A DNA stretch of 41,127 bases from an uncultured Saprospiraceae bacterium (GTDB lineage: Bacteria > Bacteroidota > Bacteroidia > Chitinophagales > Saprospiraceae): positions 1 through 41,127 of the forward strand of contig CAYUNA010000001.1 of assembly GCA_964445895.1 (NCBI GenBank), in the 5' to 3' direction. The notes below the pieces were generated by a model. The model saw nothing but the letters and a program-made list of their open reading frames with translations. It searched no databases and had not been told where the DNA came from. Position numbers and translations under genes: made by a program. Shown in pieces: positions 6,607-30,991 of this stretch (positions within the stretch are counted from its first letter, which is position 1; each line of letters begins with the position of its first letter).

Positions 6607-6636
6607 AGAAAGACTGGATTTTGAAGATTGGTCACG
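6607..6636 (-). promoter_or_regulatory. Bipartite motif copy G (CGTGACC-N15-GTCTTTCT), candidate ECF-type promoter of the K+ channel gene
   Basis: Read on the minus strand. Spacing is the same 15 nt as in the 6 other copies. It lies 22 nt upstream of ATG 6584. Both half-sites carry one mismatch. Confidence 0.4.
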
Positions 6637-6715
6637 GAAAAAATTATGATTATTCTATCGTTCAAATGGAATTATTTCTTATATTTAATAGTTGATGAGT
6701 AAAAACATATAATTT

Positions 6716-8569
6716 ATGAGGTTAGGAACGATTAGCAATCCCAATGAAGTTATCCATCGCAAAGTAAACCACTTTTACGATTACATCCATTATCTGCTTG
6801 ATAACAACAGAGATAGAGTAAAATATTCGGGAGAAAACCACTTAACACTATTAGAAAGAATAGCGAATAGAGTAGAAAATTGCTCTCTTAATCCTTCTAC
6901 CAGGAATCTGATAGAAACCTATCTAAATAATCCACTGTTTAACTGCAAAAGTGACCGATTAGCGCGAAAAGGAAAATTGAAAAAAGTGCTGTGTGAATTG
7001 AAAACTATTCATAAAAAATCTTCTTTTACTAATCCTGATTTTAAACAAAAATTGCATGAAACCATAGAAGTCCTAAACGGTTCAGATTTACTGAATGGCG
7101 AACTTTACTTTCAAAAAGTCTTAGAAAACTTAGTCAAAATGTTGCGGTGTGATTGTTCATTGGGAAAACACAAAGACGACATAGAATATTACGCAAAACT
7201 GCTGGTTTTTGAGTTTTTGAGAGTTGATTATGAGAAAAAGCATTTGGTTGGTCTTCGTGGTTTCTTTTATCGAATCTTATCAAAAGAAACAGATTTGACC
7301 GATAGAGAGAATGATAATATTTATTCAGAATTTCCCCTCCCTCCTGCTATCGAAGCCAATCGTAACCAACCCGGATTTAAAAAAGAAGTAGAGGAATATT
7401 TAAATAGCTTGGATTTCCAAAAGCAATTTGGAGGATTATCCACTTTATTCAAGAAAGAAAAAACGGGTAAAGTCATATATAAAGTCAAATACGTCAGCGA
7501 AGTACATGAGGACTTCGATGTAACGCATGAAGGTGTTAGATTTTTTCACCGAAGTCGTCTTTCCGTAAATTTAGACCATTGGAAAGACTATCAAATAGAA
7601 GATTTGAACGAGTTTATTGACGAAAAATTCACTTGCTTGGCAGAAGTAGAATTGAATTTTAAAATCGAATCTATTGGACGACAAAAAGCAATTGTCAAAA
7701 TCAAAGAAGCAATTGAATTTTTAAATTATGTTGGAAAAGACTATGATTCTTTTAAACACGGGGCAATTTTAGATATGTCCAAAAGTTACATTTTCTATGA
7801 TACTAATGGAAATTTCCAATGGGATGCCGAAAGCATTCAAGTATCTAACCAACTGGCAAATCGGCGTTTATCAGCTCTTTATCCCGATGAATTTTATGCT
7901 TTCCCCTTCGCTACTCAAAAGACAATCAAATGGGCAGATAAAAGCATTTTTAGGTCAAATTCAAGTGCTATTTTGGAAGATAAAATTGTTTATTTGTGGC
8001 GATTTTTAGAGTGTATTTTCGCCCATCTTCCGATGAATAAGGGAGATGACATAAAGAAAAAGGTTAGTTCTGCGCTACTCACAAAATACGCTGAAAAAAG
8101 GAAGCAGTATCTATCCCTTTTCATAGGAAATGCAGCACACAACTCTGACCACAAAACGCTTAATATATCTATTACTCCAAATGAATTAAGAAAGAGACTC
8201 CATAAGATTCACAAAGACGATGAAGATATTTTGACGCTAAGTGAATTTATTGATTACCCCTTTTTAAATGAAAAATTTGCAGACTACCAATATATGGAAA
8301 AGCCCATCGACTATCAAGATGCGCACGATTATTATAGTATGGTCATGAAAGAAGCCCACGAACAACGTAATTCGATTCTTCACCAAGGAGTTTCTTGCTA
8401 CTCGACCCTAAAAAAACTAAATTCTTGTTTGTTCAATCTCATCATTCGTTTTCGTCGTGCTATTATGGAGCAATTGATTGAGAATCCTACATTGAGCATT
8501 GAGGATGCTATTGAGCAATTACATACAGAAGGTATTAGCTATTTGCCAAAAAAAAGGTTAGAGCAATGA
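6716..8569 (+). CDS. 617-aa cytoplasmic protein with C-terminal HEPN-type Rx4H motif (putative RNase/Abi-like)
   Basis: Long ATG-initiated ORF with no TM or signal peptide. EAHEQ-RNSILH-QG at aa 551-556 (nt 8366-8383), an RN...H arrangement typical of HEPN active sites. The rest is unrecognised. Confidence 0.7.
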   Translation: MRLGTISNPNEVIHRKVNHFYDYIHYLLDNNRDRVKYSGENHLTLLERIANRVENCSLNPSTRNLIETYLNNPLFNCKSDRLARKGKLKKVLCELKTIHKKSSFTNPDFKQKLHETIEVLNGSDLLNGELYFQKVLENLVKMLRCDCSLGKHKDDIEYYAKLLVFEFLRVDYEKKHLVGLRGFFYRILSKETDLTDRENDNIYSEFPLPPAIEANRNQPGFKKEVEEYLNSLDFQKQFGGLSTLFKKEKTGKVIYKVKYVSEVHEDFDVTHEGVRFFHRSRLSVNLDHWKDYQIEDLNEFIDEKFTCLAEVELNFKIESIGRQKAIVKIKEAIEFLNYVGKDYDSFKHGAILDMSKSYIFYDTNGNFQWDAESIQVSNQLANRRLSALYPDEFYAFPFATQKTIKWADKSIFRSNSSAILEDKIVYLWRFLECIFAHLPMNKGDDIKKKVSSALLTKYAEKRKQYLSLFIGNAAHNSDHKTLNISITPNELRKRLHKIHKDDEDILTLSEFIDYPFLNEKFADYQYMEKPIDYQDAHDYYSMVMKEAHEQRNSILHQGVSCYSTLKKLNSCLFNLIIRFRRAIMEQLIENPTLSIEDAIEQLHTEGISYLPKKRLEQ

Positions 8570-8582
8570 CTTCGCTCTAACC
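8556..8582 (+). terminator. Hairpin overlapping the stop codon of 6716-8569
   Basis: 9-bp stem ggttagagc / gctctaacc with a 9-nt loop. No clear T-run. Confidence 0.35.
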
Positions 8583-8617
8583 TCCATGAAATTTAATAAA
8601 TCACCTATTATGTAAAC

Positions 8618-8776
8618 TTATTTCTTCTTCTTTGCCTGTGGCACTAAAGATTTTCCCTTGTGTGCTGGGTTTGCAGCACCAGGTTTAGCGTTTGCAGTTC
8701 GAGCAGCTTTGCGTTTTGCTTTTACTGCTTCTGCATTCTTTTTTGCTTCGGTTCTTTTTTGTACTTTCGTTTTCAT
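8618..8776 (-). CDS. Possible 52-aa highly basic small protein (not in ORF track)
   Basis: ATG 8774-8776 to TAA 8618-8620. Translation: MKTKVQKRTEAKKNAEAVKAKRKAARTANAKPGAANPAHKGKSLVPQAKKKK. Lys/Ala-rich. It could be spurious. Confidence 0.3.
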   Translation of the reverse strand: MKTKVQKRTEAKKNAEAVKAKRKAARTANAKPGAANPAHKGKSLVPQAKKKK

Positions 8777-8800
8777 AATTGTAATAAGTTTTTAAGTATC

Positions 8801-8834
8801 GGGGCAAATGCAGCCTGACTGATTCATTTGCCCC
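8801..8834 (-). terminator. Hairpin downstream of the 89-aa gene
   Basis: Perfect 10-bp stem ggggcaaatg / catttgcccc with a 14-nt loop. No T-run on either strand. Confidence 0.4.
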
Positions 8835-9169: not shown

Positions 9170-9199
9170 ATAAAGACTGCTAATAAAAAATTGGTCACA
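9170..9199 (-). promoter_or_regulatory. Bipartite motif copy F (TGTGACC-N15-GTCTTTAT)
   Basis: Exact match to both half-sites on the minus strand. It points at ATG 9123. Confidence 0.5.
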
Positions 9200-10125: not shown

Positions 10126-13100
10126 CTACTTTACACAGAGTCCGTTTTCACTATGTTCTGAAGTCAAGAATGATACATCAGCGTATTCATTTTGCAATAC
10201 TAAAATATGGCATCTTCTTGTGGTATCATCACTATTTTGTGTTTTAAAATTGATTATTGCCTGTACGCTTTTACCAACCAAAGTTGTATTATCTATTTCA
10301 CTATCATCGGGCAATATTGATTTCAATTTATCAAAACCAAAATCTACCATAACTTCAATTAATCCAGCTTGATAAACAGGTTTAACAGATATAATAGTTC
10401 CCGTTCTGATGTCCAGTTTTGCGAAATCTTCTAATTGAATCTGTGGTTTGATAGTCGCCACGTTTGTTTTGTACCAGACTTCTAATATTTCAAAAAGAAT
10501 CTCGGTCTGAAAATGAGTCTGCTGGGAAAGATAACGAAAAGACCGGAAAATTAGATTTGGGAAAAAATTAGTAATTAAGACAGACATAATCTCATGGATG
10601 GCTTTAATTTTTTTATCTTCAGTTATAGACTTAGCCATAATGAGTCGATTCATAAAGTGAAATACTTTCAATAAACTATGCCCGTAGTTGTTTGTGTTGA
10701 GTTCAAAAAAATGATGACAAACCTTAAAATTATCTAATCGAATTGCTGCATACAAAACATCTTCTTTTACAGCAATATTCTTGTAATTTAGTTGTAATAA
10801 TTTGACCAATTTCTCGTTCAAAAAATCATGACTAATCATTTCATTATTTTGTTTTTGAAATTTTATTAAATCAACCGTTCCAAGTGCCTTTATTCCGAGG
10901 TCATTTTTTGTAACTTCTCTAAAAACATAATCATCAGATAACAAAACAAAATTGTTTTCCTGAGCGATAAGAACTGTATCATAGAAGCTGTTTTCATAAA
11001 TTTCTACCTTTCTTTGATGTTCTTCTATTCTGCCTTCTTTTCTAAGATTAACAGGCGACGGCGGGTGGCAATACTTTTCTACAAAAGAAAGTAAGTCTGT
11101 AAAATATTTGAGTGTCGCTTCTTTTTCTTTTCTTGTTTTTTCATATCTGAATTCCTGTCCATCTTTTTCAATAATCTGAAAAGAATTCTGCTTCAACTCC
11201 TCTTCTTTTTGGATAAGTAAGTTTTTTACAAGTTCCAAAGTAGAGTAAGAGATGTGTATTTTACCATAAAAAGTATTAATCCATTGCCCCAATTCTAAAT
11301 GATGAAGGGCTAAAATTGAAGTAACATCGCAGCAAAATTCCACGTTTGCATTTTTAAGATGCAAAAACACTTCTACGGTTTCCTCTTCAAATCCAGAAGA
11401 ACAGTTGATTCCAATTGATTCATCATTAATGAATTTGTGCCACAATAGAATTGGGTTGATATTTTCATAGAAAGCAACAAAGCCAAGAGGGACATTACTT
11501 TTTCGATAAAAACTATGTACTTGCTCAACAGCTTCCTGACGCTTTCTGTTTTGTTCTAAATTTTTATCCAAGAATGTTTTTATAGACTCCAAACCATTGC
11601 CTATCACTATTTTCAAATTTGGGTCATCACTAAATTTTCCACCTAACAATTCGATACTTTGCAGAAAAGCATAGTGGTCTTTGGTCAAAATCTTACTGAC
11701 TCTAACCGTTTGTTCTACATTTAAGAAATTATTCTCACCCCAAGGGATAATATCTCCGACTTTTTTTGCTTTTAACTTTTCAAATAAAGGGTCGCTGACG
11801 TTTATCTCATGCCTTGCTTTATTCGCATCAACTCTATTCTCAATTATGTAAGTGATTTGAAAAGCGTTCTCCTTTTCTAAAAACACTACAGTATCTAATC
11901 CAACTTCATTAACTCTTAACTCTTCCTTCGTCTGATTGATTTTTGTACTAATGAAAACATAAGCCTGATGCGCTTCTGCTGTGTCAAATAAGCGGCGCAT
12001 TTCATAGACAAGGTTTAATACTTCTGCCTTTTTGCCTACCTGAAGCAGCATCGAAGCAATTCTTTGCACTGAAAAAACAGAAAGTTGTGCAAGTGGTATT
12101 TTCTGAATTTTTGATAAAATATCCTTTGTTTCTTCCTCCAGATAAAAAGTCAACTCTCCAAGTCTTAGCAACATTTCCACATCCTCTTCATAAGTGCTGC
12201 AATACAATTTCATTAAATCGAATGCCGCTCGAAAATCTTTGATATAGACATACGTATTGATTAACTCTTTGGTCAAATAAGTTGTTATGCCTATAGCCTC
12301 ATAAGACTCTTTGCAATGCGCAATTACTTTATTAAAATTACCACTTTCTTTGTAGCAATGAATTAAGCATTCAGATAAATAACTTGGTTCTGCTGGCGAC
12401 AAGAATTTTTCAAAGATTACGACGGCTTCAGCAAATTTTTCAGATTCCATTAGTGATATGGCCAATTCACTTAATTCAGTATCTGTGGTGTTTTCGTCAA
12501 TTAGATTGAGTGCTTCCTCTGCATATTGATTGACCTTTTCAAATTCTTCTTTGGCAAAAGCCAATCTCCCTTTGAGAGCTAATACAGAAATACAAACAGG
12601 TGCTTTTTCTAACAGACTATTCATTTTTTCTAACCTATTACAAGATAAATAAAGGTTTGACAAGAAATGTATAGCTCTATCTATTAGAAGTGAATCGGGA
12701 TGATTTTTAATGAATTTTTCTAATCTTGAAATAGCTTCTTCTTGATTTTCAGGTTTATAAGTGTTAAAAAGAGACTCTGCAAAAATCATCAAGACATCGT
12801 GATAATCGGGATGCGTAAAATCATTTATTTCTCTGCACATTTGTATCAAATCATCCTGTTTTCCCCATTTTTTTAAGAAGTAAATTTTTTGACTATACAA
12901 TGAGGGGGTCTCTTCTACATTTAAGGCAACATCTATCCACTTAATAGCTTCCTCATAAAGTCCTAACGCTGAATATACCGTGCTAATATTGATAGGCATT
13001 CCTATAAATTCCTTGTTCAAATCCGTGTTTCCATGTACTTCCCATACTTCTTTATACAATTTAATGGCTAAGCGTAAATCGCTCTTTTTATATTCTGGGA

Positions 13101-14361
13101 TAAAAGTTTCCTTTACGGAGTGAAACCTAGAGGAATAAGTGTACGAAATGTTGTAAGCTAAAATTGGTTTGTATAATAAGCCATTGTCATCACGATTAGC
13201 AATGGCTTTCAACATATAAATTTTGTATTTCTCAATATTATCTTTCCTTAAATATGCTTTTGCAAGAGAATAATTCAACTCTGAATTGCTGATTAAATTA
13301 GTAGGCAGATTATCAATAACATCTTCGATATTACAATTTTCTTCATTTAATTGAATGACAAAATTTTGTAAGGTATTCGGATGATGAAGTTTTAATTCTT
13401 CACTCAATTCCTCCGCTTTTTCAGGTTGATTGAGCATTCTATATCCTACTAATGCTTGATAAATAGCGTTAGAAGAATTAGGGGCATAAACCAATGCCTC
13501 GATATAGTTTTGACCTGCTACCTGAAATTTCCCTAAGCGCTCCCTTGACTTGCCAAGATTCCCGATAGTCAAAAACATCAATTTATTATCATTAACCTGG
13601 TCACGTTCCAATTTTGATTTCAATTCTAAAAGAACCTGTTCTGCTTTGTAGTAATTTTGAATTTTTAGTAATTCCAGACCTTCATTTAGTCTATCTTTAT
13701 ATTCAGCAATTAAGCTATTTACAAAATCCTCTGTTTTCGACTTACTGATTGCTTCTAACAGTCTATTTTCCATCTGCACCAAGCCATTATTTACTCCACC
13801 TATTGCCTCTCTGGTAGCTTCAACACCGATAGAAATTTCATCCAATTTTCTCCTCTGTCCATCAATATTAGCCCGTATCTGTTCAATTACTTCATGTGAC
13901 TCAAAAACTTGATATAAAAGCACATAAATACCTTGCCTTTCAGATAATTGATTAAACAAAGTCTCTTGAAAACCTGATAAAGCGTTACGAATTAGTCTCT
14001 GCGCCAATTTGCTATCAATAGATTGACTGTGTTCTTCATCCAAAATTTTTAAAAAATTCTGAATCAGTAATTCGATAAAATCAGGCTTTGTCAGGGCTTC
14101 TCGAAAATTAGATACATTCTGAATATTTAAATTGAAGAGAGCTACTAACCTTTTTCGTTCTAACCGAACAAGCCATTCTAATTGTTGTAAAGTTGTTTTT
14201 TCACCTGCCTTTACTTTTGCCTTTTCGTCACTTAAACATTTTTGGAAAGAATTATAAAATACATTTTCTAACTGACTAACCGCTCCAAATGCTGTGAGTT
14301 TTTTAACCCAACTTGAAAAACCTGCAATGTTGCCAAATGTAAATTTGAATATCTCAAGCAT
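10126..14361 (-). CDS. 1411-aa multidomain protein: N-terminal coiled-coil, TPR-like array, GreA/B-C-like, PIN-like, C-terminal tRNA-binding (Trbp111/CsaA-type OB)-like
   Basis: Single uninterrupted ORF. aa ~815-895 TYIIENRVDANKARHEINVSDPLFEKLKAKKVGDII aligns by eye to the GreA C-domain ([31 protein letters not shown]). aa ~1005-1165 EFCCDVTSILAL...LLSDDYVF...GTVDLI shows PIN-like acidic residues. aa ~1305-1405 LEDFAKLDIRTGTIISVKP...VDFG...LVGKSVQAIINFK resembles the tRNA_bind OB. Confidence 0.9.
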   Translation of the reverse strand: MLEIFKFTFGNIAGFSSWVKKLTAFGAVSQLENVFYNSFQKCLSDEKAKVKAGEKTTLQQLEWLVRLERKRLVALFNLNIQNVSNFREALTKPDFIELLIQNFLKILDEEHSQSIDSKLAQRLIRNALSGFQETLFNQLSERQGIYVLLYQVFESHEVIEQIRANIDGQRRKLDEISIGVEATREAIGGVNNGLVQMENRLLEAISKSKTEDFVNSLIAEYKDRLNEGLELLKIQNYYKAEQVLLELKSKLERDQVNDNKLMFLTIGNLGKSRERLGKFQVAGQNYIEALVYAPNSSNAIYQALVGYRMLNQPEKAEELSEELKLHHPNTLQNFVIQLNEENCNIEDVIDNLPTNLISNSELNYSLAKAYLRKDNIEKYKIYMLKAIANRDDNGLLYKPILAYNISYTYSSRFHSVKETFIPEYKKSDLRLAIKLYKEVWEVHGNTDLNKEFIGMPINISTVYSALGLYEEAIKWIDVALNVEETPSLYSQKIYFLKKWGKQDDLIQMCREINDFTHPDYHDVLMIFAESLFNTYKPENQEEAISRLEKFIKNHPDSLLIDRAIHFLSNLYLSCNRLEKMNSLLEKAPVCISVLALKGRLAFAKEEFEKVNQYAEEALNLIDENTTDTELSELAISLMESEKFAEAVVIFEKFLSPAEPSYLSECLIHCYKESGNFNKVIAHCKESYEAIGITTYLTKELINTYVYIKDFRAAFDLMKLYCSTYEEDVEMLLRLGELTFYLEEETKDILSKIQKIPLAQLSVFSVQRIASMLLQVGKKAEVLNLVYEMRRLFDTAEAHQAYVFISTKINQTKEELRVNEVGLDTVVFLEKENAFQITYIIENRVDANKARHEINVSDPLFEKLKAKKVGDIIPWGENNFLNVEQTVRVSKILTKDHYAFLQSIELLGGKFSDDPNLKIVIGNGLESIKTFLDKNLEQNRKRQEAVEQVHSFYRKSNVPLGFVAFYENINPILLWHKFINDESIGINCSSGFEEETVEVFLHLKNANVEFCCDVTSILALHHLELGQWINTFYGKIHISYSTLELVKNLLIQKEEELKQNSFQIIEKDGQEFRYEKTRKEKEATLKYFTDLLSFVEKYCHPPSPVNLRKEGRIEEHQRKVEIYENSFYDTVLIAQENNFVLLSDDYVFREVTKNDLGIKALGTVDLIKFQKQNNEMISHDFLNEKLVKLLQLNYKNIAVKEDVLYAAIRLDNFKVCHHFFELNTNNYGHSLLKVFHFMNRLIMAKSITEDKKIKAIHEIMSVLITNFFPNLIFRSFRYLSQQTHFQTEILFEILEVWYKTNVATIKPQIQLEDFAKLDIRTGTIISVKPVYQAGLIEVMVDFGFDKLKSILPDDSEIDNTTLVGKSVQAIINFKTQNSDDTTRRCHILVLQNEYADVSFLTSEHSENGLCVK

Positions 14362-14803: not shown

Positions 14804-15538
14804 TCACTCTTTAGGTTTAATTATCCTCCGTGTCCCAATCTTAATATTCACAAATTCCACCAACACCGCAAACGCCATAGAAAAATAAATATAGCCTTTG
14901 GGAATATGGAAATCTATGCCTTCTGCAATTAGAGCAGTCCCAATCATCAACAAAAAGGAAAGGGCTAAAACTTTCACAGCAGGATGTTTATTGACAAAAT
15001 TGCTCAAAGCAGTTGCCGCTAACATCATTATGCCTATTGCTACCACTACCGCAGCAATCATTATTTCCAAGTGCTTTGCCATACCGACAGCGGTAATCAC
15101 AGAATCGAAAGAAAAGACGATATCAATCAGGATAATTTGTAGGACGATATTTTGAAACGTGACTTTTTGGGCAGAAGAAATTATGGGAGATGCTTCATTT
15201 TCTGCGGCCTCCATCTTATCGTGTATTTCCATCACACTTTTATAAATCAAGAATAACCCACCTAAAATCAGGATAATATCACGCCCCGAAATCCCCATTT
15301 CTCCTACTTGGAAAAGGTCTCTGGTCAGTCCCATAATCCATGAAATCGAAAAAAGCAAACCTATCCTGGTCAGCAGAGCCAAACTCAATCCGACCTGTCG
15401 AGCCTTCGCCTGTTGTTGCTGGGGAAGTTTATTGGCCAGTATTGAAATAAAAATCAGGTTGTCTATGCCCAAAACGATTTCTAGAGCACAAAGCGTTAAA
15501 AATGAAGTCCAAATATCCGGGTTTGTTATCCACTCCAT
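14804..15538 (-). CDS. TerC-family integral membrane protein
   Basis: 244 aa and polytopic. LEIVLGIDNLIFISILANKLP and the second repeat DIVFSFDSVITAVGM are typical of TerC/YjbE. Confidence 0.9.
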   Translation of the reverse strand: MEWITNPDIWTSFLTLCALEIVLGIDNLIFISILANKLPQQQQAKARQVGLSLALLTRIGLLFSISWIMGLTRDLFQVGEMGISGRDIILILGGLFLIYKSVMEIHDKMEAAENEASPIISSAQKVTFQNIVLQIILIDIVFSFDSVITAVGMAKHLEIMIAAVVVAIGIMMLAATALSNFVNKHPAVKVLALSFLLMIGTALIAEGIDFHIPKGYIYFSMAFAVLVEFVNIKIGTRRIIKPKE

Positions 15539-18320: not shown

Positions 18321-18360
18321 TTACTGATGCTAAATATTTTATTGAAAATTTACTTTCGTG

Positions 18361-21341: not shown

Positions 21342-21371
21342 ATAAAGACTGAATGATTTAAAATGGTCACA
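21342..21371 (-). promoter_or_regulatory. Bipartite motif copy B (TGTGACC-N15-GTCTTTAT)
   Basis: Exact match on the minus strand, 43-55 nt upstream of the start of 20609-21286/21298. Confidence 0.5.
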
Positions 21372-21513: not shown

Positions 21514-23070
21514 TTAAAAAGGATAAATAACGATATTTTCATTAAGCGTATCCACATTATTATTCTTTTGTTCTTTTTGGAATACAGGTATAGAAATGCT
21601 TAGTTTATAAACTAAAAAATGAATGCAGTAATCGTTATTTTCATGCAATGTGGGCAAAGAAATTTGAAAATCAATTGGATGTTCCTCTGCATGAGTATTA
21701 ATAGTGTCTGATTGAAGATGAAAGTTATTTACTATTTCTTTTCGATTGTCACCTTCAATACAGATTAATTTGAAATATTCATTAAAATTAGCTGGTGAGA
21801 TAAAAATTCTCTTGGTTGGATGTAAATTTTTGATTGTTCCCTTAATTTTCGTCTTATCTTCTGACAATTCAAAAGATAGCTCAATGCCCCGATTTACTTT
21901 ATTATTCCATTCGTCAATCGAATAAAACATTTTCCCAAGCATACTTCTAATTAATCGGTAGTTATCGGAAAACGGATTAACTTCAAAATAGTGTAGCCCA
22001 GTCTGGAGCATCTCTTTTTGCTTTAAAGACTCTAACCAAATGCTATTTTCCATAGCCGTTTCAATCCTTCTTACTGCTCGCCTATTTTCTTCCAGAGAAA
22101 CGGAAAAAGGCTTAGATTTTAAGCCCTCATAAGCACCAGTTACATTTCGTTGCTCACTTTCTTCCCCTTTCCTGTAAGCAGGTATATACTTTTTTATCCA
22201 TTTTAAATAATGTATTGAGTTAAACGAATTTGGGTTTAAAGGGTCGTCCTCCTCCAACTCTTTAGAGGTATGAAACGCACACAGGCATCTTTCAAAATGA
22301 AGAATTACCCAATTTTCAAAACTGCGGCAGGAATAAGCTACATTGATATAATCCTTCCACGTAGCATCAAGTTCTCCTTCTTCGCCGCCAGCGTAATCAA
22401 ATTGTTGATTATTATAAAAAAGTGCTGTGGGGTCTGCATTATTCAAATCTTCAAACTCTTGACGTTTATCTGTTAGTTGAATAACCATATTTTGCTCATC
22501 AGTAATATGACAGGTCGTTTCAAGAAAACGCTGATAGTCCAATTTGGACAGAAAGCAACAACCCCTATATGCTTTTATTTGATTGAATGTAGCAGCATCA
22601 AGCCTGTTCTGCATTCTATTTAAAGTGTTCTCTGTGATTTGATAACTGTTACAATCGTCGTTATCAATCACTATCCATATTTCGTCGTATGGATTCTGCT
22701 CTTCTTCATTTTTCTCATCCTCTTCTCTTTTTAGCTCCATCGCCTTCCAAATCATTCCTTTGAGGCTGTTATCTATCAACTCATTATTTTCTTTTTTGTG
22801 GGATTGGGTAATGACTTTTATTTCAACTGCTGACAGTTTTCTGCTTAGTACTAAATTTGATTTTAATCCTTCAAAATAGGATTTTTCTGTTGGTCCTTCA
22901 CAGATAATCAAAAAACGTTTTGCGGGTAGTTGTACTTTTTCTTCGTCGCGCAATTTGGCACCGTCAGGTATAACAAAAACTGGAACATCCTTTTTCTGTT
23001 TTTCTGCTTTCAACTCTCGCTTTTGGGTTTGCTTCAATTCTCGCCTTTGCTGCTTTTTTCTTTTACTCAT
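21514..23070 (-). CDS. RloB-like (Toprim-related) protein, AbiLii-like, extended (518 aa)
   Basis: RFLIICEGPTEKSYFEGLKS matches the RloB CEGxxTExxYF signature. IWIVIDNDD is a DxD-type acidic motif. It has a Lys/Arg-rich N-terminus and ~170 extra C-terminal aa. Overlaps the upstream ATPase gene by 8 nt. Confidence 0.85.
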   Translation of the reverse strand: MSKRKKQQRRELKQTQKRELKAEKQKKDVPVFVIPDGAKLRDEEKVQLPAKRFLIICEGPTEKSYFEGLKSNLVLSRKLSAVEIKVITQSHKKENNELIDNSLKGMIWKAMELKREEDEKNEEEQNPYDEIWIVIDNDDCNSYQITENTLNRMQNRLDAATFNQIKAYRGCCFLSKLDYQRFLETTCHITDEQNMVIQLTDKRQEFEDLNNADPTALFYNNQQFDYAGGEEGELDATWKDYINVAYSCRSFENWVILHFERCLCAFHTSKELEEDDPLNPNSFNSIHYLKWIKKYIPAYRKGEESEQRNVTGAYEGLKSKPFSVSLEENRRAVRRIETAMENSIWLESLKQKEMLQTGLHYFEVNPFSDNYRLIRSMLGKMFYSIDEWNNKVNRGIELSFELSEDKTKIKGTIKNLHPTKRIFISPANFNEYFKLICIEGDNRKEIVNNFHLQSDTINTHAEEHPIDFQISLPTLHENNDYCIHFLVYKLSISIPVFQKEQKNNNVDTLNENIVIYPF

Positions 23071-24415
23071 GATTTTGGAAAATTTCAGAGTTTTTCACAC
23101 GAGAAATGATTACATCATGCTGAATACTCGGAATCCCACCAAATCGGCCTGATAAATACCATTTTTGAAAAGGACTGTTGCTTCTGACTCCACTAAACTC
23201 GGAAATTGGATAGACTTCGGTTGCATTGTATTCATTCTTTTGAAAAAGAAAGATTTGGTCTCGGCTGAAAACGTCAGCACTAAGTAAAGAAGGGTCGTGG
23301 GTAACAAAGATTAATTGAGCATTGTTGGGATTTGAATCTTCATTATGAAAGAATCGAATTAAAGATTCAGTTATGCGAGGATGGAGGCTTTTATCCAATT
23401 CGTCAATTAATAGAACATCTCCTGATTGTAACGCAGATAAAATTGGAGGAAGCAAACTTAGAAACTTATTTGTTCCTGTGGATTGTTCGCTTAGTGGTAG
23501 GGTATCTGTTCCAATTTCATTTTCGCCATCAAACATTCGATGTTTTATTTTTATCCTGAATTTTAACCTATCCAAAAGGTCATTTTCTATTCTCCTTTTT
23601 TCTTCTTCTGGGAATCCATCTGGAAACTCAACGGTTGGTAAAGCCCCATCTTTTCCAACATCAATACCAACGATAGAACTGTCTAACTGCATTATTAGAT
23701 TTTCAATTAATCTACCAACAGGCGAATTGATATTTTCGGACAGAAATTTACCTAAAGTACTCATTTGAATCTCGTTATACCCCTCTCCTGAAAAACTAAA
23801 CCAATCTAAGTGCTTTGAAAAGAATAAATAAACAGGAATGAGTTGCTCGTGCGCTTGATTAACTGCTTCTGACAAGAACAGTTGATTAGGCAGTAATATT
23901 TCTTCTATTTGCTTTTTCTTTCCTCTGAAAGTTTCCCCGAACCTCATAGCAGTACCTTCTTCACGAGTATAGAGTTTCACCTGTGATACTCGCGTTTTTC
24001 CCTCAATCGGGTAATAACTCAATTCTTCCTCAATAATTTTTTCCCGATTAAATTTTACATAGTATTGATAACGTAAATCATTAGGAGCAATAAATTCAAT
24101 GTTAAATATTGTCGGGGATTTGCGGGTTTTAAGGTCGAAATGAAAAACTTCATTTGCTTCGAGCGAGTCTCCTGGTTGAAATCTATTTGATTTTTCAACT
24201 ATCCACTTAAATGCTTTAAATGCTCTGAGAAAGTTACTTTTTCCAGCATTATTCGCTCCATATATAACGGCTGAGTTGAGCGTATATAATTTATCGTATT
24301 TTTTGCTTCTGGAAGGCATGTTCGGTCGCTCTCGCACATTTTTAGAAGGAATTAGATTGAGTGTTTGAGTTTCTTTTATTGACCTAAAATTAGTAACAGA
24401 AAAAGATAGTAGCAT
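23063..24415 (-). CDS. ABC-type AAA ATPase (AAA_15/AAA_21-like), AbiLi-like
   Basis: MLLSFSVTNFRSIK..., Walker A GANNAGKSNF, signature-like SEQSTGTNKF, Walker B VLLIDELDKSLHP and H-loop region LIFVTHD. Confidence 0.9.
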   Translation of the reverse strand: MLLSFSVTNFRSIKETQTLNLIPSKNVRERPNMPSRSKKYDKLYTLNSAVIYGANNAGKSNFLRAFKAFKWIVEKSNRFQPGDSLEANEVFHFDLKTRKSPTIFNIEFIAPNDLRYQYYVKFNREKIIEEELSYYPIEGKTRVSQVKLYTREEGTAMRFGETFRGKKKQIEEILLPNQLFLSEAVNQAHEQLIPVYLFFSKHLDWFSFSGEGYNEIQMSTLGKFLSENINSPVGRLIENLIMQLDSSIVGIDVGKDGALPTVEFPDGFPEEEKRRIENDLLDRLKFRIKIKHRMFDGENEIGTDTLPLSEQSTGTNKFLSLLPPILSALQSGDVLLIDELDKSLHPRITESLIRFFHNEDSNPNNAQLIFVTHDPSLLSADVFSRDQIFLFQKNEYNATEVYPISEFSGVRSNSPFQKWYLSGRFGGIPSIQHDVIISRVKNSEIFQNHE

Positions 24416-24713: not shown

Positions 24714-25871
24714 TTATTTACCCAATCCAACATTCAAGTTAAATCGCGCACTCAATCCCACAAACGGACGGACCATTGCTTTGGTGTCGCCCATCACGTC
24801 GGGATTAGAAGTGTCTATTCCTTCCATCAATACAGCTCCTGCGTTAATGTGAATAAACTTGAATAACTTGTGGTCTAAGCCCACATATACTGGTCGGCTG
24901 ACCAAGAAACCTGTGACTTCATTTCCTTTTTCATCTTCAAAGTTGTCCAGGAAGAAACCCAAAGTCACCGATGAATTACTCAAAAATTTAGAGCCTAAAA
25001 CGCTATTCCCCAAAGGAAAAGCCAATCCAACATAAGGAGATGAACCGTAGTTGGAATCTTCAATATCGCCAGACAAGTACACACCACCGTAACCAACATT
25101 GATGGCAAAGCCATTTTCTTTGCTTTCGGTTTCGTAGTTATCTACCGTTCGGCTATCAGATAAAACCAACATTTCGCGGTCAATCATCTGCGCTACTTCC
25201 ATTTTTACCTGTACTTTCAATCCATTGATTAATTGCGCACGGTTGTTTTGCCGTACTGCCTTCTTGTTGTTCATGCTGTCTTTTTTGACGTAACCCGTTT
25301 CCAAGTTTGCTTTTTCCAATTGCTCCAATTTCAAGCGGATGATTTCGGAAAATTCTGGTTTCCAGTTTGCCGTCTTGGTGCGATATGGCGCAAAAGCATT
25401 GCTCACAATCTCATTCATTTCTTTAACCGTGTGCTTGCTTTTTTTGAGCAATTTGATGGTCTTTTCTCCCGTCAAATTCACGTCCATAAAAGCGTCTAAA
25501 GTAGCCACCAATTGGTCATTCAATTTCTGACGGTCTTTGGCAGGTAGCGTACGGAAGAAATCCATACGGAAATCATACTTATCAGATGACCGTAATTTGA
25601 AATTAATCGGCATCGAAAATTCTTTGTTAGCTTGTGTTGTCGCAGTTGCTTGATAAAGGTGGTCGCTTCTTTTAGCAGACAAAATATTCAACTCCATCAT
25701 TTCGATTCCATCAGGTGCTAAACCTTTTAAAACCATTGATTTTTCAGCGGGTAATGGTTGCCCCTCATTGAACCAATTGCGCTCTGCGTCGTAAGTGACC
25801 GTAGTATATTGAGCAATGGTTGGGCATACAAAAGTTAGGATAGCAATAGCTACCAAGATTAAATTTTTCAT
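24714..25871 (-). CDS. Secreted/outer-membrane hypothetical protein
   Basis: 385 aa. Signal peptide MKNLILVAIAILTFVCPTIAQ and a beta-rich C-terminal third. Confidence 0.75.
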   Translation of the reverse strand: MKNLILVAIAILTFVCPTIAQYTTVTYDAERNWFNEGQPLPAEKSMVLKGLAPDGIEMMELNILSAKRSDHLYQATATTQANKEFSMPINFKLRSSDKYDFRMDFFRTLPAKDRQKLNDQLVATLDAFMDVNLTGEKTIKLLKKSKHTVKEMNEIVSNAFAPYRTKTANWKPEFSEIIRLKLEQLEKANLETGYVKKDSMNNKKAVRQNNRAQLINGLKVQVKMEVAQMIDREMLVLSDSRTVDNYETESKENGFAINVGYGGVYLSGDIEDSNYGSSPYVGLAFPLGNSVLGSKFLSNSSVTLGFFLDNFEDEKGNEVTGFLVSRPVYVGLDHKLFKFIHINAGAVLMEGIDTSNPDVMGDTKAMVRPFVGLSARFNLNVGLGK

Positions 25872-26170: not shown

Positions 26171-26200
26171 ATAAAGACTGGAAAGAAAAAATCGGTCACA
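26171..26200 (-). promoter_or_regulatory. Bipartite motif copy C (TGTGACC-N15-GTCTTTAT)
   Basis: Exact match on the minus strand, 28 nt upstream of ATG 26142. Confidence 0.5.
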
Positions 26201-26243
26201 TCTTTTTTTGAAAAAATTTAATTTTCATGTTTTTTTATTTCCT

Positions 26244-26251
26244 TACTTTTG
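26244..26251 (+). promoter_or_regulatory. Bacteroidota -7 box (TACTTTTG) for the ParB-ATPase operon
   Basis: Matches TAnnTTTG, 22 nt upstream of ATG 26274. This supports 26274 over 26208 as the start. Confidence 0.4.
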
Positions 26252-26273
26252 CTTTTTTCATAAAAAAACTTTT

Positions 26274-28427
26274 ATGAACCATCAGACAAACAATATAGTA
26301 GATTTTCTACCAATAGAGAAAATTTTTCTTGACCCTAATAATTATCGCTTTATTGATAATAGAAGTTATCAGAAAGTAGATGATAGTGCTATTACAAATC
26401 AGCGTATTCAAGAAAGAACTTTTAATTTTATCGTTGGTAAAAATAACGAGGGGATTCGTGATTTGATTAAGAGTTTTAGAAATAATGGCTATCTAAACGG
26501 AGACCAAATACATGTCCAAAAGATTAGTGATGATGAGTACAAAGTAATTGAAGGGAATAGGAGAATTGCAACTTTAAAGTTTTTACAAAACCGATACGAA
26601 AAAGGCATTAGTATTGGGCAATTAGACCCTAGCATCTTTCAGAATATCCCTGTAATGCTTTATGATGATAAAGATTCACAGCATTATAGAGTTATCATGG
26701 GATTGCAGCATATCACTGGTAAAAAAAAGTGGTCTCCAGTTAATCAAGCTCAATTAATTAAAGATTTGATAGATGGAGGAATGTCAGAAGAAGCCGTAGT
26801 TGATGCCCTTGGTACAACTAAGCATTTTTTGCGGAGGACGCTTCGCGCTTTATCGCTTATCAATGCCTACAAAGATAGTGATTATGGCGACCAATTTACT
26901 GCTGAAATGTACAATATTTTCCATGACGCAGTTAATTCCCAGCCTATAAAAAGTTGGTTAGCTTGGGATGATTTTACAAAGAAACCTACAAATGCTGATA
27001 ACGCAGAACGTTTTTTCTCTTGGCTCTCAAAGCCTGAAATTATTGAAAATGACGGCGAAAGAAAGATTTTAGACCCCATTATTCAAAAAGGTAGTGATGT
27101 TAGAGATATAGCAAGGTTTATCCATGATGATAAAGCATTAGAATGGATGGAAGACACTCGACAAATTAGCGATGCTTATTTAAGTGGAGGGTCAATTGGC
27201 AAAGAAAAATTTAATAATACCTTATTTCAAATTGACAAATACTTTGATTCTGCTATTCCATTTGCGACTTACGCAGATGGTTCATCTAAAGAGAAATTAG
27301 AAGAAATCCAAAAGAAATTAAGAATGCTTTTAGCTTCTCAAAATATATCATCTTCCGAGGTGGTGGTAGGTCAAAATGGTCAAGCAGAAGTTTTATTAGA
27401 TTTAAAGAGTAGTAAACAATTTTCTGAAATATTAATAAAGAAGTATAAGCAGTTCAACCATCTGAAAATAGAAAGTCTTAATCGAGTCAATATTTTTGCG
27501 GGTATCAATAACATTGGCAAATCCTCTTTGTTAGAAGCTATTTTGTTACTTTCTCGGCAAAATGATATTAATGGTTTTTTAAATATTCAACGAAGAAGAG
27601 GGAAATTTCTCAATAATGCTATTCCATCTAACTGGTTAAACAAAATTTTTATTGAACCAATCGAAATTGAAGGCTACTTTTGGAATAGCCCTGTCTCTAT
27701 AAAAATCGAAAAACGAACAGAAGATGAAGAACACTTAGATAAAACTGCTTACTTAAATTCTGTATTTATCAAAGGTCAATTTGCTGATGACCATTTTGAA
27801 AGTTACATGCGGCTTTACGGAAATAAACCGAGTGAACTATTTTACAAAAATATTAAAATACTTTGTCCAAGTGTTTATTCTACACCTTTTGCCATGCAAT
27901 TGGGCAATGATTTATATGATGCTCATGAAGCAAGCATTACCTCAAAATCTTATGATAAAATTTTAGAATTTATTCAGAGTTCTATTGACGGAGGTATTTT
28001 GGATATAAATCTTGTCAATCCCGACGACCTTAGAAGATTCGAGGTTAATCACGATTATTTTGAGGAAACTATTGACCTTACGCAGTTTGGAGAAGGCTTA
28101 CAAAGGATATTTTACATTGCTCTACTGTTTGCAAAAGCCCGCAATGGCATCGTACTGATAGATGAAATTGAAACAGCTATTCATTATTCACTTTTAGTCC
28201 AATTTACTAAGTTTATTCAAAAATTAGCAGAAGATTACAACGTGCAGGTTTTTGTCTCGTCTCACAGTAAAGAGTGCATCAACGCATTCTTAGAGAACGG
28301 ATATGAGAACGAAACTATATCGGGGTATCATTTAGAGAAAAAGAATGGAGAGATTGTCTGTCAGCAAGTAACAGGAGAGCGTTTTTCTCGCTTGATTCAA
28401 AATTTCAATTACGATTTAAGAGGCTAA
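26274..28427 (+). CDS. Fusion protein: ParB/Srx-like N-domain + HTH + ABC-type AAA ATPase (AAA_21-like)
   Basis: The ORF track gives 26208-28427 and the likely start is MNHQTNN. LPIEKIFLDPNNYRF and VIEGNRRIATLKFL are ParB-box-like. C-terminal half: Walker A GINNIGKSSLLEA, signature-like QFGEGLQRIF, Walker B IVLIDEIETAIH, and VFVSSHSKE. Confidence 0.85.
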   Translation: MNHQTNNIVDFLPIEKIFLDPNNYRFIDNRSYQKVDDSAITNQRIQERTFNFIVGKNNEGIRDLIKSFRNNGYLNGDQIHVQKISDDEYKVIEGNRRIATLKFLQNRYEKGISIGQLDPSIFQNIPVMLYDDKDSQHYRVIMGLQHITGKKKWSPVNQAQLIKDLIDGGMSEEAVVDALGTTKHFLRRTLRALSLINAYKDSDYGDQFTAEMYNIFHDAVNSQPIKSWLAWDDFTKKPTNADNAERFFSWLSKPEIIENDGERKILDPIIQKGSDVRDIARFIHDDKALEWMEDTRQISDAYLSGGSIGKEKFNNTLFQIDKYFDSAIPFATYADGSSKEKLEEIQKKLRMLLASQNISSSEVVVGQNGQAEVLLDLKSSKQFSEILIKKYKQFNHLKIESLNRVNIFAGINNIGKSSLLEAILLLSRQNDINGFLNIQRRRGKFLNNAIPSNWLNKIFIEPIEIEGYFWNSPVSIKIEKRTEDEEHLDKTAYLNSVFIKGQFADDHFESYMRLYGNKPSELFYKNIKILCPSVYSTPFAMQLGNDLYDAHEASITSKSYDKILEFIQSSIDGGILDINLVNPDDLRRFEVNHDYFEETIDLTQFGEGLQRIFYIALLFAKARNGIVLIDEIETAIHYSLLVQFTKFIQKLAEDYNVQVFVSSHSKECINAFLENGYENETISGYHLEKKNGEIVCQQVTGERFSRLIQNFNYDLRG

Positions 28428-28438
28428 TCATCATTCCT

Positions 28439-29254
28439 ATGAAAATAATAATTACGCTTTGCGAAGGGCCGCACGATGTTGAATTTTTATATAAGATATT
28501 AAGGACAACAGGTTATCGAACTTACGGCAAAAAGGTGGAAGAACTCCCCGTTTTTTTGAAAGAGCATGTATTAAGTGCTTTTAGGAAATTTCCTTATGAG
28601 GAAAAGAATCTTTATGAAAGACCTGTTTTACCTACTTTGGGCTACCATGAAGCTAAAGATATTTTAATGATGTTTTATGCACTTGGGGGAGATGGAAAAA
28701 TTGATGAAGCTAATTTTGTTATTCGAGCATTCCAAGATTTGATTATTACTAAAATACATGGCCAAATTGACATGGGATTGGCTTTTATTTATGATGCTGA
28801 TGATGACGGTGTTGCTTCGCGAGTAAACAATATCAAAACGAATTTCAGAAGATTACTTCCCGAAATAGAAAACATTGACCACAACAAAGTAATTAGTGGA
28901 AACGAGTATCAGGCAATTGGTGCTTATATTTTTTCAAATGGAGATGGAATTGGAAAATTAGAAGATATCCTACTACCTCTAATGAAGGAAGATAATGAAC
29001 CCATATTTGATGATGCCCAAAAGTACTTGAATGACCATTTCGATGATACACGATTTAAAAATCCGCGAGATATGAGGAAGTATTATGACCATAAAAAGTC
29101 CCTTATAGGTATGGCAGGACAATTGCAGCGTTCAGGACGAAACAATACAATGATTATTAAAGATTCGGATTATATCACGACAGAAAAAATTGAGGGACAT
29201 GCTACTTGCATGGAAATTCTAGCCTTTTTTGATAATGTATATAACAATATCTAG
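28439..29254 (+). CDS. 271-aa Toprim-like partner protein (DUF4276/OLD-Toprim-like, guess)
   Basis: MKIIITLCEGPHDVEFLYKIL carries the conserved Glu in a strand-EG context. FIYDADDDG is a DxD-type motif at aa 119-123. It starts 11 nt after the ATPase stop. Confidence 0.8.
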   Translation: MKIIITLCEGPHDVEFLYKILRTTGYRTYGKKVEELPVFLKEHVLSAFRKFPYEEKNLYERPVLPTLGYHEAKDILMMFYALGGDGKIDEANFVIRAFQDLIITKIHGQIDMGLAFIYDADDDGVASRVNNIKTNFRRLLPEIENIDHNKVISGNEYQAIGAYIFSNGDGIGKLEDILLPLMKEDNEPIFDDAQKYLNDHFDDTRFKNPRDMRKYYDHKKSLIGMAGQLQRSGRNNTMIIKDSDYITTEKIEGHATCMEILAFFDNVYNNI

Positions 29255-29270: not shown

Positions 29271-30101
29271 TTACCCAATTATCTTAATCTGCTTTGTAAT
29301 CAACTGACTGGCAGGAATCACCAATCGTTCTTTTTCATTGATTTGAATGGTCACCGAAATATTGGTCATTTTTACAATTTTTCCTTGTTGCCCATCGATT
29401 TCTATGGTCTGCCCTATCGCAAAATTGCGGCGACTAAAAAAGCTACCCAAGATACTGGAAAGGACATCACGCGAGGCAAAGCCGTAAGAAATTGCTGCGG
29501 ATAACATAATAGAGCCGATAATCAATAATAGGTTAGAAGTAATGATGCTGGTGTCAATGCCTGCCTGACTTAATGCCGTCAATGTGACCATTGTAGCCAA
29601 AAGGTAAAATATAAAACTACTGATGACCCGACCAGCACTGATGCCCAAAGTCTGGGTTGCGCCACGAATGACATCGCGGATAAAGGAGGCAATGTAAATC
29701 CCGATAATGAAGAAAACGATGGCAGCTAATAATTGCGGCAAATACCCTAAAAGTTTGGAGATTTCATCTGATACGGCAGACCAGCCCAAAGCATCTGCTG
29801 CGGTAATAAAGACCAACAATAGCAAGAGCCAATAGATGAATTTGCCAATCAATACGCTGGGGGAAAGGGTTATATTGGCTTTGGTCAAGAAGTCTTTGAC
29901 ATTGACGTTTTCTGCGAGTTTGTTGAATTTGATGACTTTGAGAAGTCGCTCAATGCCTGTAGCAATAATTTTTGCGAATAACCATCCGAATAATAAGATG
30001 AATATTGCGCCGATAATGCCGGGGATAGCAGCCATTAATGTTTTTCCAAAGGTGGTTAAGGATTCAAAAAGTAATTCCGTCCACGTGGTTACTTCGTTCA
30101 T
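29271..30101 (-). CDS. MscS-related membrane protein with repeated TM-helix motif
   Basis: 276 aa and polytopic. C-terminal FAIGQTIEIDGQQGKIVKMTNISVTIQ is an MscS-type beta-domain start. It is the last gene of the sigma operon. Confidence 0.8.
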   Translation of the reverse strand: MNEVTTWTELLFESLTTFGKTLMAAIPGIIGAIFILLFGWLFAKIIATGIERLLKVIKFNKLAENVNVKDFLTKANITLSPSVLIGKFIYWLLLLLVFITAADALGWSAVSDEISKLLGYLPQLLAAIVFFIIGIYIASFIRDVIRGATQTLGISAGRVISSFIFYLLATMVTLTALSQAGIDTSIITSNLLLIIGSIMLSAAISYGFASRDVLSSILGSFFSRRNFAIGQTIEIDGQQGKIVKMTNISVTIQINEKERLVIPASQLITKQIKIIG

Positions 30102-30125
30102 TTAAAATGTTTTTTATTTGCCAGT

Positions 30126-30359
30126 TTAGAACTCATCTTCATCATCTTCTCCTTCGGCTAAATCAAAGAAAGCAGCTTCCGTTTTTGTAAATTTATCCGT
30201 AAATAAATCTGCTATATCCCCAATCAAATTGAGGGTGTCGAGGGTTTTAAACACCTCCTTTTTAAGTTCTTCGGGTGCATCTTCTTTCGGTATCAGTGCT
30301 TTGAATTTTTCTTCGAGATGCTTTTGGATGTCACTTTTTTCATTCTTCATCTTGTGCAT
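30126..30359 (-). CDS. 77-aa acidic soluble protein (position of an anti-sigma/regulatory partner)
   Basis: Overlaps the sigma gene by 20 nt. No TM. C-terminus DLAEGEDDEDEF. Confidence 0.6.
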   Translation of the reverse strand: MHKMKNEKSDIQKHLEEKFKALIPKEDAPEELKKEVFKTLDTLNLIGDIADLFTDKFTKTEAAFFDLAEGEDDEDEF

Positions 30360-30930
30360 TTTTTAAAAGTTCGGCCAATCGGTCACGACTACGTCTGAGC
30401 CGCATTTTGACGGCACTTTCACTAATTTTCAAAGTTTGTGCAATTTGCCTGACAGACATACTATCCTGGTAGCGCATCAACAGAATCATTTTGTCGTCTC
30501 CTTTCAGTTCTTTTAACAACAATTCTAACTGATTAAGTTGGATTTCTTTTAGGACTTTATTTTCCAGTTCAATTTCGTCGGCTGCCACTTGGTCATAATC
30601 ACTAGCATCTAACTGTCCAAATTTAAGCCTTTTTTTCTTTTTTAAATAATCCATGCAATAATTATAAGTAATGGATTTGACCCAAAAAGAAAAATCAGAA
30701 GTGCCTTTAAACTTGGCCAGATTCATGAAAATCTTGATGATAATATCGTGTGAGAGGTCTTTAGCCACGTCGCGGTCTTTGGTGATACTGAGACATTTAT
30801 AGAATACTTTATCGGCATATCGCTCATAAAGAATTTCGAGCAACTGCTTTTCACCTTGCAATACTTTTTGAATAATGTCCCAATCTGACCAATCCTTTGC
30901 GGTGGCTTTTTCTACTTTTTGTAAAATCAT
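30340..30930 (-). CDS. ECF-type RNA polymerase sigma-70 family factor
   Basis: 196 aa. Region 2-like DVAKDLSHDIIIKIF...FSFWVKSITYNYCMDYLKK and region 4 HTH MSVRQIAQTLKISESAVKMRLRRSRDRL. Confidence 0.9.
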   Translation of the reverse strand: MILQKVEKATAKDWSDWDIIQKVLQGEKQLLEILYERYADKVFYKCLSITKDRDVAKDLSHDIIIKIFMNLAKFKGTSDFSFWVKSITYNYCMDYLKKKKRLKFGQLDASDYDQVAADEIELENKVLKEIQLNQLELLLKELKGDDKMILLMRYQDSMSVRQIAQTLKISESAVKMRLRRSRDRLAELLKNAQDEE

Positions 30931-30947
30931 TTAAGTGAAATATGAAG

Positions 30948-30955
30948 CAAAGGTA
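30948..30955 (-). promoter_or_regulatory. Bacteroidota -7 box (TACCTTTG) for the sigma operon
   Basis: Matches TAnnTTTG on the minus strand, 17 nt upstream of ATG 30930. Confidence 0.4.
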
Positions 30956-30961
30956 AACAAA

Positions 30962-30991
30962 TGTGACCAAATATCTAATTGAGGTCTTTAT
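30962..30991 (+). promoter_or_regulatory. Bipartite motif copy D (TGTGACC-N15-GTCTTTAT), divergent from the sigma gene
   Basis: Exact match on the plus strand. MITE copy 2 starts 18 nt downstream. Confidence 0.4.

Follow-up and report, generated by a model that had tools for sequence, protein, structure and literature searches.

We find that seven copies of a bipartite motif, TGTGACC-N15-GTCTTTAT, stand in front of genes in a 41,127-nt stretch of DNA from an uncultured Saprospiraceae bacterium (contig CAYUNA010000001.1; "the window" hereafter means this whole stretch). On sequence grounds, the seven sites are probably promoters read by RNA polymerase carrying the sigma factor of the extracytoplasmic function (ECF) type that is encoded at 30340-30930 of the same window. 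An earlier, sequence-only reading had proposed that the sites are promoters of an ECF sigma regulon; all of our in silico checks agree with this predicted role, and the motif is also carried by homologous sigma genes and by orthologues of the genes that follow two of the sites (B and C). ECF sigma regulons of the SigX/CmpX type are already known, and the kind of regulation is not new. The notable features here are a very crisp consensus, a spacer length that is specific to each clade, and a local clustering of the regulon that appears to have been disrupted by mobile DNA. Loci with L-numbers are loci fetched from other contigs.

Seven gene-facing sites with a fixed spacing

Exact search for TGTGACC-N15-GTCTTTAT returned five matches in the window, at the coordinates, on the strands, and with the sequences first described, while not one was seen in 100 dinucleotide-preserving shuffles (mean, 0.00; maximum, 0). 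The expectation of far less than one chance match is thus borne out. Two near copies, G (6607-6636) and E (18806-18835), were also re-found, each with two mismatches. When up to three mismatches are allowed, the window has nine matches against 1.15 expected; the two extra ones, 3814(-) and 13026(+), have three mismatches each, lie within long open reading frames (ORFs), and are probably due to chance. The relaxed core GTGAC-N16-GTC occurs at exactly the seven sites and nowhere besides (0.32 expected; shuffle maximum, 2). The spacing proved to be as fixed as had been claimed, with only 0-1 matches at each of the ten other core spacings (N11-N15 and N17-N21).

A position weight matrix (PWM) was built from 22 sites, comprising those of the window and of close relatives. 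Its scores are bimodal: The seven sites reach 25-36 bits, and the rest of the 41 kb does not exceed 8 bits. Spacer positions 8-13 read (A/G)(A/T)TTTT and positions 21-22 read CA, which matches the (G/A)ATTTT start and CA end noticed before. T at position 28 is invariant (22 of 22 sites), and this position played no part in site selection. Similarity is otherwise limited to the two boxes and a few spacer positions, with a variable central spacer and variable flanks. All seven window sites and all 15 sites from close relatives are intergenic, face a gene, and are never less than 4 nt from its start codon. The claim that every copy faces the neighboring start codon therefore stands for 7 of 7 sites, each co-oriented with the next gene, and direct reading of the sequence returned the same distances to start codons (4, 22, 28, 43-55, and 46 nt, with 262 and 246 nt across a miniature inverted-repeat transposable element, or MITE). 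The sites and the genes after them are as follows.

Site G, 6607-6636 (-): CGTGACC-N15-GTCTTTCT, 22 nt before the K+ channel ATG; PWM 34.1 bits; predicted ECF promoter
2189-6584 (-): probable operon after G, with Pfam domains, judged to be an operon from co-orientation and short gaps
5616-6584 (-): K+ channel gene (Ion_trans)
4729-5520 (-): DUF481 gene (Pfam), in the G operon
3093-4724 (-): MscS, 543 aa (Pfam), in the G operon
2189-3067 (-): MscS, 292 aa (Pfam), in the G operon
Site F, 9170-9199 (-): exact copy, 46 nt before ATG; PWM 34.6 bits
8854-9123 (-): 89-aa acidic soluble protein, after F
Site A, 18361-18390 (-): exact copy, followed by a MITE and then genes; PWM 35.2 bits
17157-18098 (-): coiled-coil protein with a transmembrane (TM) anchor, after A
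16351-16929 (-): second anchored protein, after A
15581-16375 (-): patatin, after A
14804-15538 (-): TerC, after A
Site E, 18806-18835 (-): GGTGACG-N15-GTCTTTAT, 4 nt before ATG (18801); PWM 25.3 bits
18412-18801 (-): DUF4783 protein with a signal peptide, after E
Site B, 21342-21371 (-): exact copy, 43-55 nt before start; PWM 33.3 bits
20609-21298 (-): secreted 229-aa protein, after B
19678-20520 and 18844-19665 (-): two tandem-Usp proteins, next after the 229-aa gene
Site C, 26171-26200 (-): exact copy, 28 nt before start; PWM 35.8 bits
25927-26142 (-): 71-aa LapA-domain membrane protein, after C
24714-25871 (-): secreted 385-aa protein, next after the LapA-domain gene
Site D, 30962-30991 (+): exact copy, divergent from the sigma gene and 32 nt from the sigma ATG; PWM 31.7 bits
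31238-32236 and 32233-32904 (+): two proteins after D, past the MITE; no Pfam match, apparently cytoplasmic

Both mismatches of site G fall at weakly conserved positions (1 and 29). Site E is only 4 nt from its ATG, and its transcript, if E is a promoter, would therefore be leaderless or nearly so, as judged from the usual distances between ECF -10 elements and transcription starts. The downstream genes had been described as a K+ channel and small secreted or membrane proteins. This description fits six of the sites and fails at D, where the proteins look cytoplasmic and their genes adjoin the mobile and defense DNA of a NACHT/ArdC region. Taken as a set, the targets (K+ channel/MscS operon, Usp, TerC, LapA-like, and secreted proteins) suggest an ionic or envelope stress regulon.

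One further likeness between sites was seen outside the boxes. The 13-mer ATCTAATTGAGGT occurs at 18390-18402, directly upstream of site A, and at 30973-30985, within the spacer of site D. A similar string, AATTAGG, precedes the -35 box of site F. The window holds 173 such 13-mer pairs; we therefore judge the shared 13-mer not to be significant and probably to reflect chance.

The boxes resemble ECF promoter elements

ECF promoters of the classical kind include those of Escherichia coli sigma-E, of the GGAACTT-N16-TCAAA type, and those of Bacillus subtilis sigma-X (TGTAAC-N17-CGAC) and sigma-W (TGAAAC-N16-CGTA). The window motif is like these in being bipartite with a rigid spacer, a -35 box ending in AC(C/T), and a -10 box containing (C)GTC/GTC. 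It is unlike them in that its -35 core is GTGAC rather than an AAC-containing sequence, and in that its -10 box is extended by a T-rich TTTAT tail. The housekeeping sigma-A of Bacteroidota has the consensus TTG / TAnnTTTG (PMC9723704). As had been noticed from the sequence, the seven sites are not of that type: They have neither the TAnnTTTG -7 box nor TTG near -33, and their conserved boxes are GTGAC and GTCTTTAT. A scan of the window for sigma-70 consensus promoters and terminators gave background levels, as expected for Bacteroidota.

A conserved upstream motif of any kind could be an operator, and TGTGA is a half-site of the CRP/FNR type. We therefore weighed the reading that the motif is bound at two unlike half-sites by a conventional repressor or activator, and consider it improbable. 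The CRP/FNR operator palindrome, TGTGA-N6-TCACA, was tried as a candidate and occurs at none of the seven sites; no site has TCACA, or anything near it, six bases after TGTGA. The boxes of the window sites form neither a palindrome nor a direct repeat, so that the motif is asymmetric. Furthermore, the sites face genes strictly, their minimum distance of 4 nt to an ATG fits a promoter, and spacing varies by one base at most. The boxes resemble ECF -35 (an xGxAAC-like GTGAC) and -10 (GTC) elements, and it is with a family of ECF sigma genes, not with a gene for a transcription factor, that the motif is associated.

Searching the literature for the motif string brought up no relevant paper. The ECF motif in a Flavobacterium psychrophilum paper on transcription start sites is a different one, with a CGT box. 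When a collection of genome contigs was scanned for the exact motif, at least 120 loci were returned. Most of the matches listed were chance occurrences within coding DNA of unrelated phyla. Among the matches listed, a few resemble real intergenic sites, namely those in Saprospiraceae (L022, L025, and L075), Flavobacterium (L052), and Bacteroidaceae (L079/L081); the ORFs downstream of them were uninformative.

A sigma gene in a conserved three-gene module

The gene at 30340-30930 had been called an ECF sigma gene divergent from site D, and the protein indeed scores 90 bits against TIGR02937 (cutoff, 42.9); its best match in the Protein Data Bank is SigW. It is the first of three genes.

30340-30930 (-): ECF sigma factor, 196 aa (Pfam Sigma70_r2 and r4_2); proposed cognate sigma
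30126-30359 (-): small ORF for an acidic soluble protein of 77 aa (JGI call, 74 aa); it overlaps the stop codon of the sigma gene
29271-30101 (-): CmpX-like truncated MscS-family channel, 276 aa (PF05552 and PF00924); third gene of the module

The 77-aa ORF had no match in Pfam or NCBIfam. By its CfrX-like position and size, it is a candidate anti-sigma factor or partner of the sigma. The 276-aa channel aligns solely with TM3 and the beta domain of MscS structures; apart from this pore helix and the beta domain, it has only the PF05552 helices. CmpX itself has a short MscS architecture of this TM3 plus beta-domain type.

Homologues of the sigma factor were gathered by protein search with contig look-ups and by a metagenome scan with the family alignment. 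This yielded 85 homologous loci with sigma identities of 32-81%. Names of homologues (Saprospiraceae, Lewinellaceae) and a type IX secretion system (T9SS) sorting domain assign the contig, which derives from a JGI metagenome (3300038671), to Bacteroidota. In most of the 85 loci, the channel gene begins 200-330 nt past the sigma gene, a gap wide enough for a small ORF, and such an ORF is kept in close and mid-clade loci. The three-gene module is therefore a hallmark of the family.

The closest named sigma homologues come from two contigs of metagenome-assembled genomes labeled Paraglaciecola sp., a gammaproteobacterium (L126/L127; GCA_047610105.1 and GCA_047629355.1; 78-81% identity by tblastn and BLASTP, respectively). 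These contigs also carry a K+ channel homologue (80%) and do not differ from the Bacteroidota loci in gene content or motif. The label could reflect mis-binning, or it could be relevant to the SigX reported in Paraglaciecola (see below).

The motif recurs upstream of sigma homologues

We scanned 74 non-redundant 300-nt regions upstream of sigma homologues for GTGAC-Nd-GTC. Co-oriented motifs were found at the following spacings.

d=16: 12 of 74 loci
d=17: 19 of 74 loci
d=18: 3 of 74 loci
every other spacing tested: at most 1 locus each

In total, 31-34 of the 74 loci have a co-oriented motif, and seven (3+4) have one on the opposite strand, that is, a divergent promoter-like site such as D. 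The preferred spacing differs between clades. Close relatives have 15 sites at d=16 and no more than 2 at other spacings, whereas distant relatives have 29 sites at d=17 and no more than 3 elsewhere, with GTCTTAA as the -10 box. In the distant clade, the sigma gene is preceded by TGTGACY-N16-GTCTTAA and followed by a cmpX-like gene. The spacer is thus N15 (core, 16) in the close clade and N16 (core, 17) in the distant one; promoter geometry, in other words, co-varies with the sigma clade.

Individual loci illustrate the arrangement. L123 (sigma identity, 72%) has one copy of the motif 30 nt ahead of the sigma ATG and another ahead of the cmpX-like gene. L124 (63%; contig JAWKLJ010000002.1 of GCA_041392805.1) has a copy before the sigma gene, back-to-back with a divergent one. 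L128 (63%) has TGTGACC-N16-GTCTATAT 27 nt before a compact operon of cmpX-like, TerC, K+ channel, and sigma genes and the small ORF. As judged from these sequences, a motif upstream of sigma homologues is the classical autoregulatory signature. This signature has already been used for the discovery of ECF promoters, according to Todor et al. (2020, PNAS; PMC7776599), who also state that ECF sigmas require near-consensus bipartite promoters and that about half of them autoregulate. The near-consensus requirement and the frequent autoregulation are traits of classical ECF promoters; for the present motif, an autoregulatory copy is seen in homologous loci and is missing from the window.

Two of the homologous loci show a variant of their own. 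At L133 5508-5540 and L148 10568-10600, sites on the two strands overlap perfectly, so that GTGAC-N17-GTCAC reads the same either way. These palindromic versions could be bidirectional promoters, or something else.

Sites and target genes cluster around the sigma gene

The sites are concentrated around the sigma gene. Density is 7 sites in 41 kb in the window and 15 in 73 kb in close relatives, while four unlinked Saprospiraceae-like loci (L208-L211) have 0-1 sites in 82 kb. Target genes are partly conserved along with their sites. In L123, the motif stands 35 nt ahead of the orthologue of target B (42% identity). In L128, the order of motif, small TM ORF, and orthologue of the 385-aa protein repeats the layout of site C; in L123, the orthologue of the 385-aa protein comes after the channel gene, which carries the motif. 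Other genes that follow the motif in relatives encode Na+/H+ exchangers, the cmpX-like MscS channel, and a cation-chloride transporter. The stress genes that correspond to the regulon units of the window are contiguous in L128, which suggests that a once continuous cluster has been split in the window by defense islands and MITEs.

Probable assignment of the sites to this sigma factor

The sites may be ECF-type promoters and yet be read by a different ECF sigma encoded elsewhere, with the neighboring sigma unrelated to them or sharing only part of the regulon. We regard this as unlikely, although it is the strongest of the alternatives that we considered. Bacteroidota have about 22 ECF sigmas per genome (PMC7826278), overlapping specificities are known, and the sigma gene of the window has no co-oriented copy of its own. 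Against this, in 31-34 of 74 loci the motif stands upstream of a homologue of this very sigma or of the operon that contains it, the spacing shifts together with the sigma clade, and sites are dense near sigma homologues and nearly absent from the unlinked loci.

Several observations nevertheless weigh against the assignment of the seven sites to the sigma of the window. Upstream of its own sigma gene, a co-oriented motif was found neither by regular expression nor by PWM, nor with the MITE mentally removed; the region (30931-31237) has only the divergent site D and the MITE. Autoregulation is thus absent in the window, and the link between sigma and motif therefore rests on the homologues. 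About half of these have no clear upstream motif, and several close homologues keep TGTGACC with a degenerate -10 box upstream of the sigma gene. K+ channel orthologues with 65-72% identity (L208-L211, four contigs) have no upstream motif, so that regulon membership is plastic rather than stable. The genes after D fall outside the envelope and ion theme. Lastly, a second ECF sigma that shares this specificity could be encoded elsewhere in the genome.

Mobile and defense DNA among the regulon units

The element that separates two of the sites from their genes is a genuine MITE, as had been suspected. It has 35-nt terminal inverted repeats (TIRs; GGGAGTTTGTAAAAAATAATCTACCC...), an internal palindrome, and 3-bp target-site duplications (TSDs), and it is present in two copies.

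MITE copy 1, 18161-18321: 161 nt, 35-nt TIRs GGGAGTTTGTAA..., TSD TTA; in the leader, 39 nt downstream of site A
MITE copy 2, 31009-31169: 161 nt, 96% identical to copy 1, TSD TAA; 17 nt downstream of site D

Copy 2 sits in the intergenic region upstream of the sigma gene. Outside the source contigs, none of the more than 200 fetched loci had a further copy. Note that both copies lie in leaders, so that transcripts from A and D would carry a long hairpin.

Two of the motif copies, A and D, adjoin this true MITE, and a repeat search places motif copies in repeat families (D2 and D4). It might therefore be asked whether the copies are remnants of a short dispersed repeat, akin to MITEs or repetitive extragenic palindromic (REP) elements, with no regulatory role. 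We hold this to be very improbable. The likeness among copies is confined to the boxes and a few spacer positions, with differing centers and flanks; the motif has neither terminal repeats nor target duplications; and it is kept at orthologous positions in contigs of 42-72% protein identity. The narrower idea that A and D are part of the adjacent MITE was rejected. At D and A, the MITE is 17 and 39 nt from the motif, has TSDs of its own, and is in opposite orientation relative to the motif; it is therefore a later insertion, not part of the motif.

Regulon units are interleaved with defense and mobile genes at 10126-14361, 21514-24415, 26208-29254, 33529-37452, and 39906-40928. The types represented are TPR-PIN-GreABC-type, RloB with AAA_21, AAA_21 with DUF3226, NACHT NTPase, and ArdC-N/MPTase-PolyVal.

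Two other sets of repeats were seen in the window. A 33-nt GC-rich repeat, AGTTCCCTTCACTTCGGTCGGGATGACAAA, has four direct copies with 76-88% identity (38960-38992, 39460-39492, 40366-40398, and 40781-40813), two of which fall within the ArdC-like ORF, on the opposite strand. A 61-nt direct repeat (1-61 and 1793-1853; 90% identity) lies at the 3' ends of two neighboring genes. The second of these encodes a T9SS C-terminal sorting domain; the two genes are therefore probably tandem paralogues.

Comparison with SigX and related systems

The closest known system is SigX-CfrX-CmpX of Pseudomonas aeruginosa (ECF group ECF102). In Pseudomonas, SigX is encoded beside CfrX (84 aa) and the MscS-like CmpX, and cfrX-cmpX are SigX targets (PMC7641640; PMC7826278). 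SigX has been studied at low osmolarity and responds to membrane alterations (PMC4362757; PMC7641640). The window shares with this system an ECF sigma beside a domainless protein of about 80 aa (77 aa here) and a short MscS-family channel that adjoins the sigma (276 aa here). The CorA homologue cmaX is adjacent in Pseudomonas, and CorA, TerC, and MscS genes are found near the sigma in L124. Furthermore, mid- and far-clade members of the family match no specific NCBIfam model better than that for SigX, NF007222; they score 90-101 bits, which is under its cutoff.

There are also clear differences. Against NF007222 (cutoff, 194), the window sigma reaches 76 bits, slightly less than against other models, and it is not a SigX equivalog. 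Gene order is sigma-small-channel in the window, as opposed to cfrX-cmpX-sigX-oprF in Pseudomonas. No OmpA/OprF-type gene is present among the 35 main ORFs of the window, and when the genes after the second motif in far-clade loci were inspected for an OprF-like gene, none was OmpA-like. Fatty-acid genes are not visible in the window regulon. Finally, the window consensus is crisp, whereas the promoter consensus of Pseudomonas SigX is reported as not precisely defined (PMC7641640). By analogy, the window system may work like SigX/CmpX, with the 77-aa ORF likened to CfrX by size and position. Membership in ECF102 is not established, because all NF007222 scores are below the cutoff and an OprF-type gene is lacking.

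Within Bacteroidota, Todor et al. (PMC7776599) combined autoregulatory motifs with phylogenetic footprinting and predicted that a SigX homologue of Flavobacteria regulates a cmpX homologue nearby. They also propose a transfer of SigX from Flavobacteria to Pseudomonas and report SigX in Paraglaciecola. The two cases are alike in that a Bacteroidota ECF sigma is computationally tied to a nearby cmpX homologue. Our distant clade, with TGTGACY-N16-GTCTTAA, is probably the Flavobacteria group that they describe. The window differs from their group in its Saprospiraceae-like lineage, judged from the names of homologues, in a spacer that is one base shorter, and in its GTCTTTAT -10 box. It also has no autoregulatory copy, and its local regulon is larger, with ion channels and Usp genes.

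A proposed model of regulation

Under the reading that we favor, in which the sites are promoters of the sigma encoded at 30340-30930, TGTGACC (core GTGAC) would be the -35 element bound by sigma region 4, and GTCTTTAT (core GTC, with the invariant T five bases later) would serve region 2 as the -10 element. The rigid spacer that ECF sigmas need would be the 16 bp that separate the cores, and transcription would begin a few bases past the motif. Control of the sigma under membrane tension or ionic or osmotic change may lie with the 77-aa protein and the CmpX-like channel, as proposed for SigX-CfrX-CmpX of Pseudomonas. Once active, the sigma would turn on a locally clustered regulon made up of the K+ channel/DUF481/MscS operon, the tandem-Usp genes, TerC and patatin, the LapA-like gene, and genes for secreted and membrane-anchored proteins. 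The motif statistics, the geometry, and the conservation at sigma homologues and at two target orthologues are observed; that this sigma reads the sites, how a signal is sensed, and what that signal is physiologically are inferred.

A bolder extension, which we put forward tentatively and think more doubtful than likely, is that the trio of sigma, small protein, and truncated MscS is a signaling device, found throughout Bacteroidota, for which a mechanosensitive channel is the gate. When the CmpX-like channel senses membrane tension or ionic shock, the sigma would be freed from the small acidic protein and would then switch on clustered K+, MscS, Na+/H+, TerC, and Usp genes.

Implications

Regulon genes that are clustered around their sigma and were apparently later split by defense islands and MITEs offer a small, clear case of mobile DNA remodeling a regulon. 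If the assignment is confirmed, a Bacteroidota family of SigX-like ECF sigmas would gain a precise promoter consensus that is easy to search for. This would permit regulon prediction for ion-channel and osmotic stress responses in uncultured Saprospiraceae-like and Flavobacteria-like bacteria, and it would supply orthogonal sigma/promoter pairs for synthetic biology. Were the channel-gated reading of the trio also true, a crisp promoter with a spacer that co-evolves with the sigma clade would offer a first clean handle on the control of SigX-type sigmas and on what they recognize, and it would also matter for the proposal that Pseudomonas received SigX from Flavobacteria-like donors.

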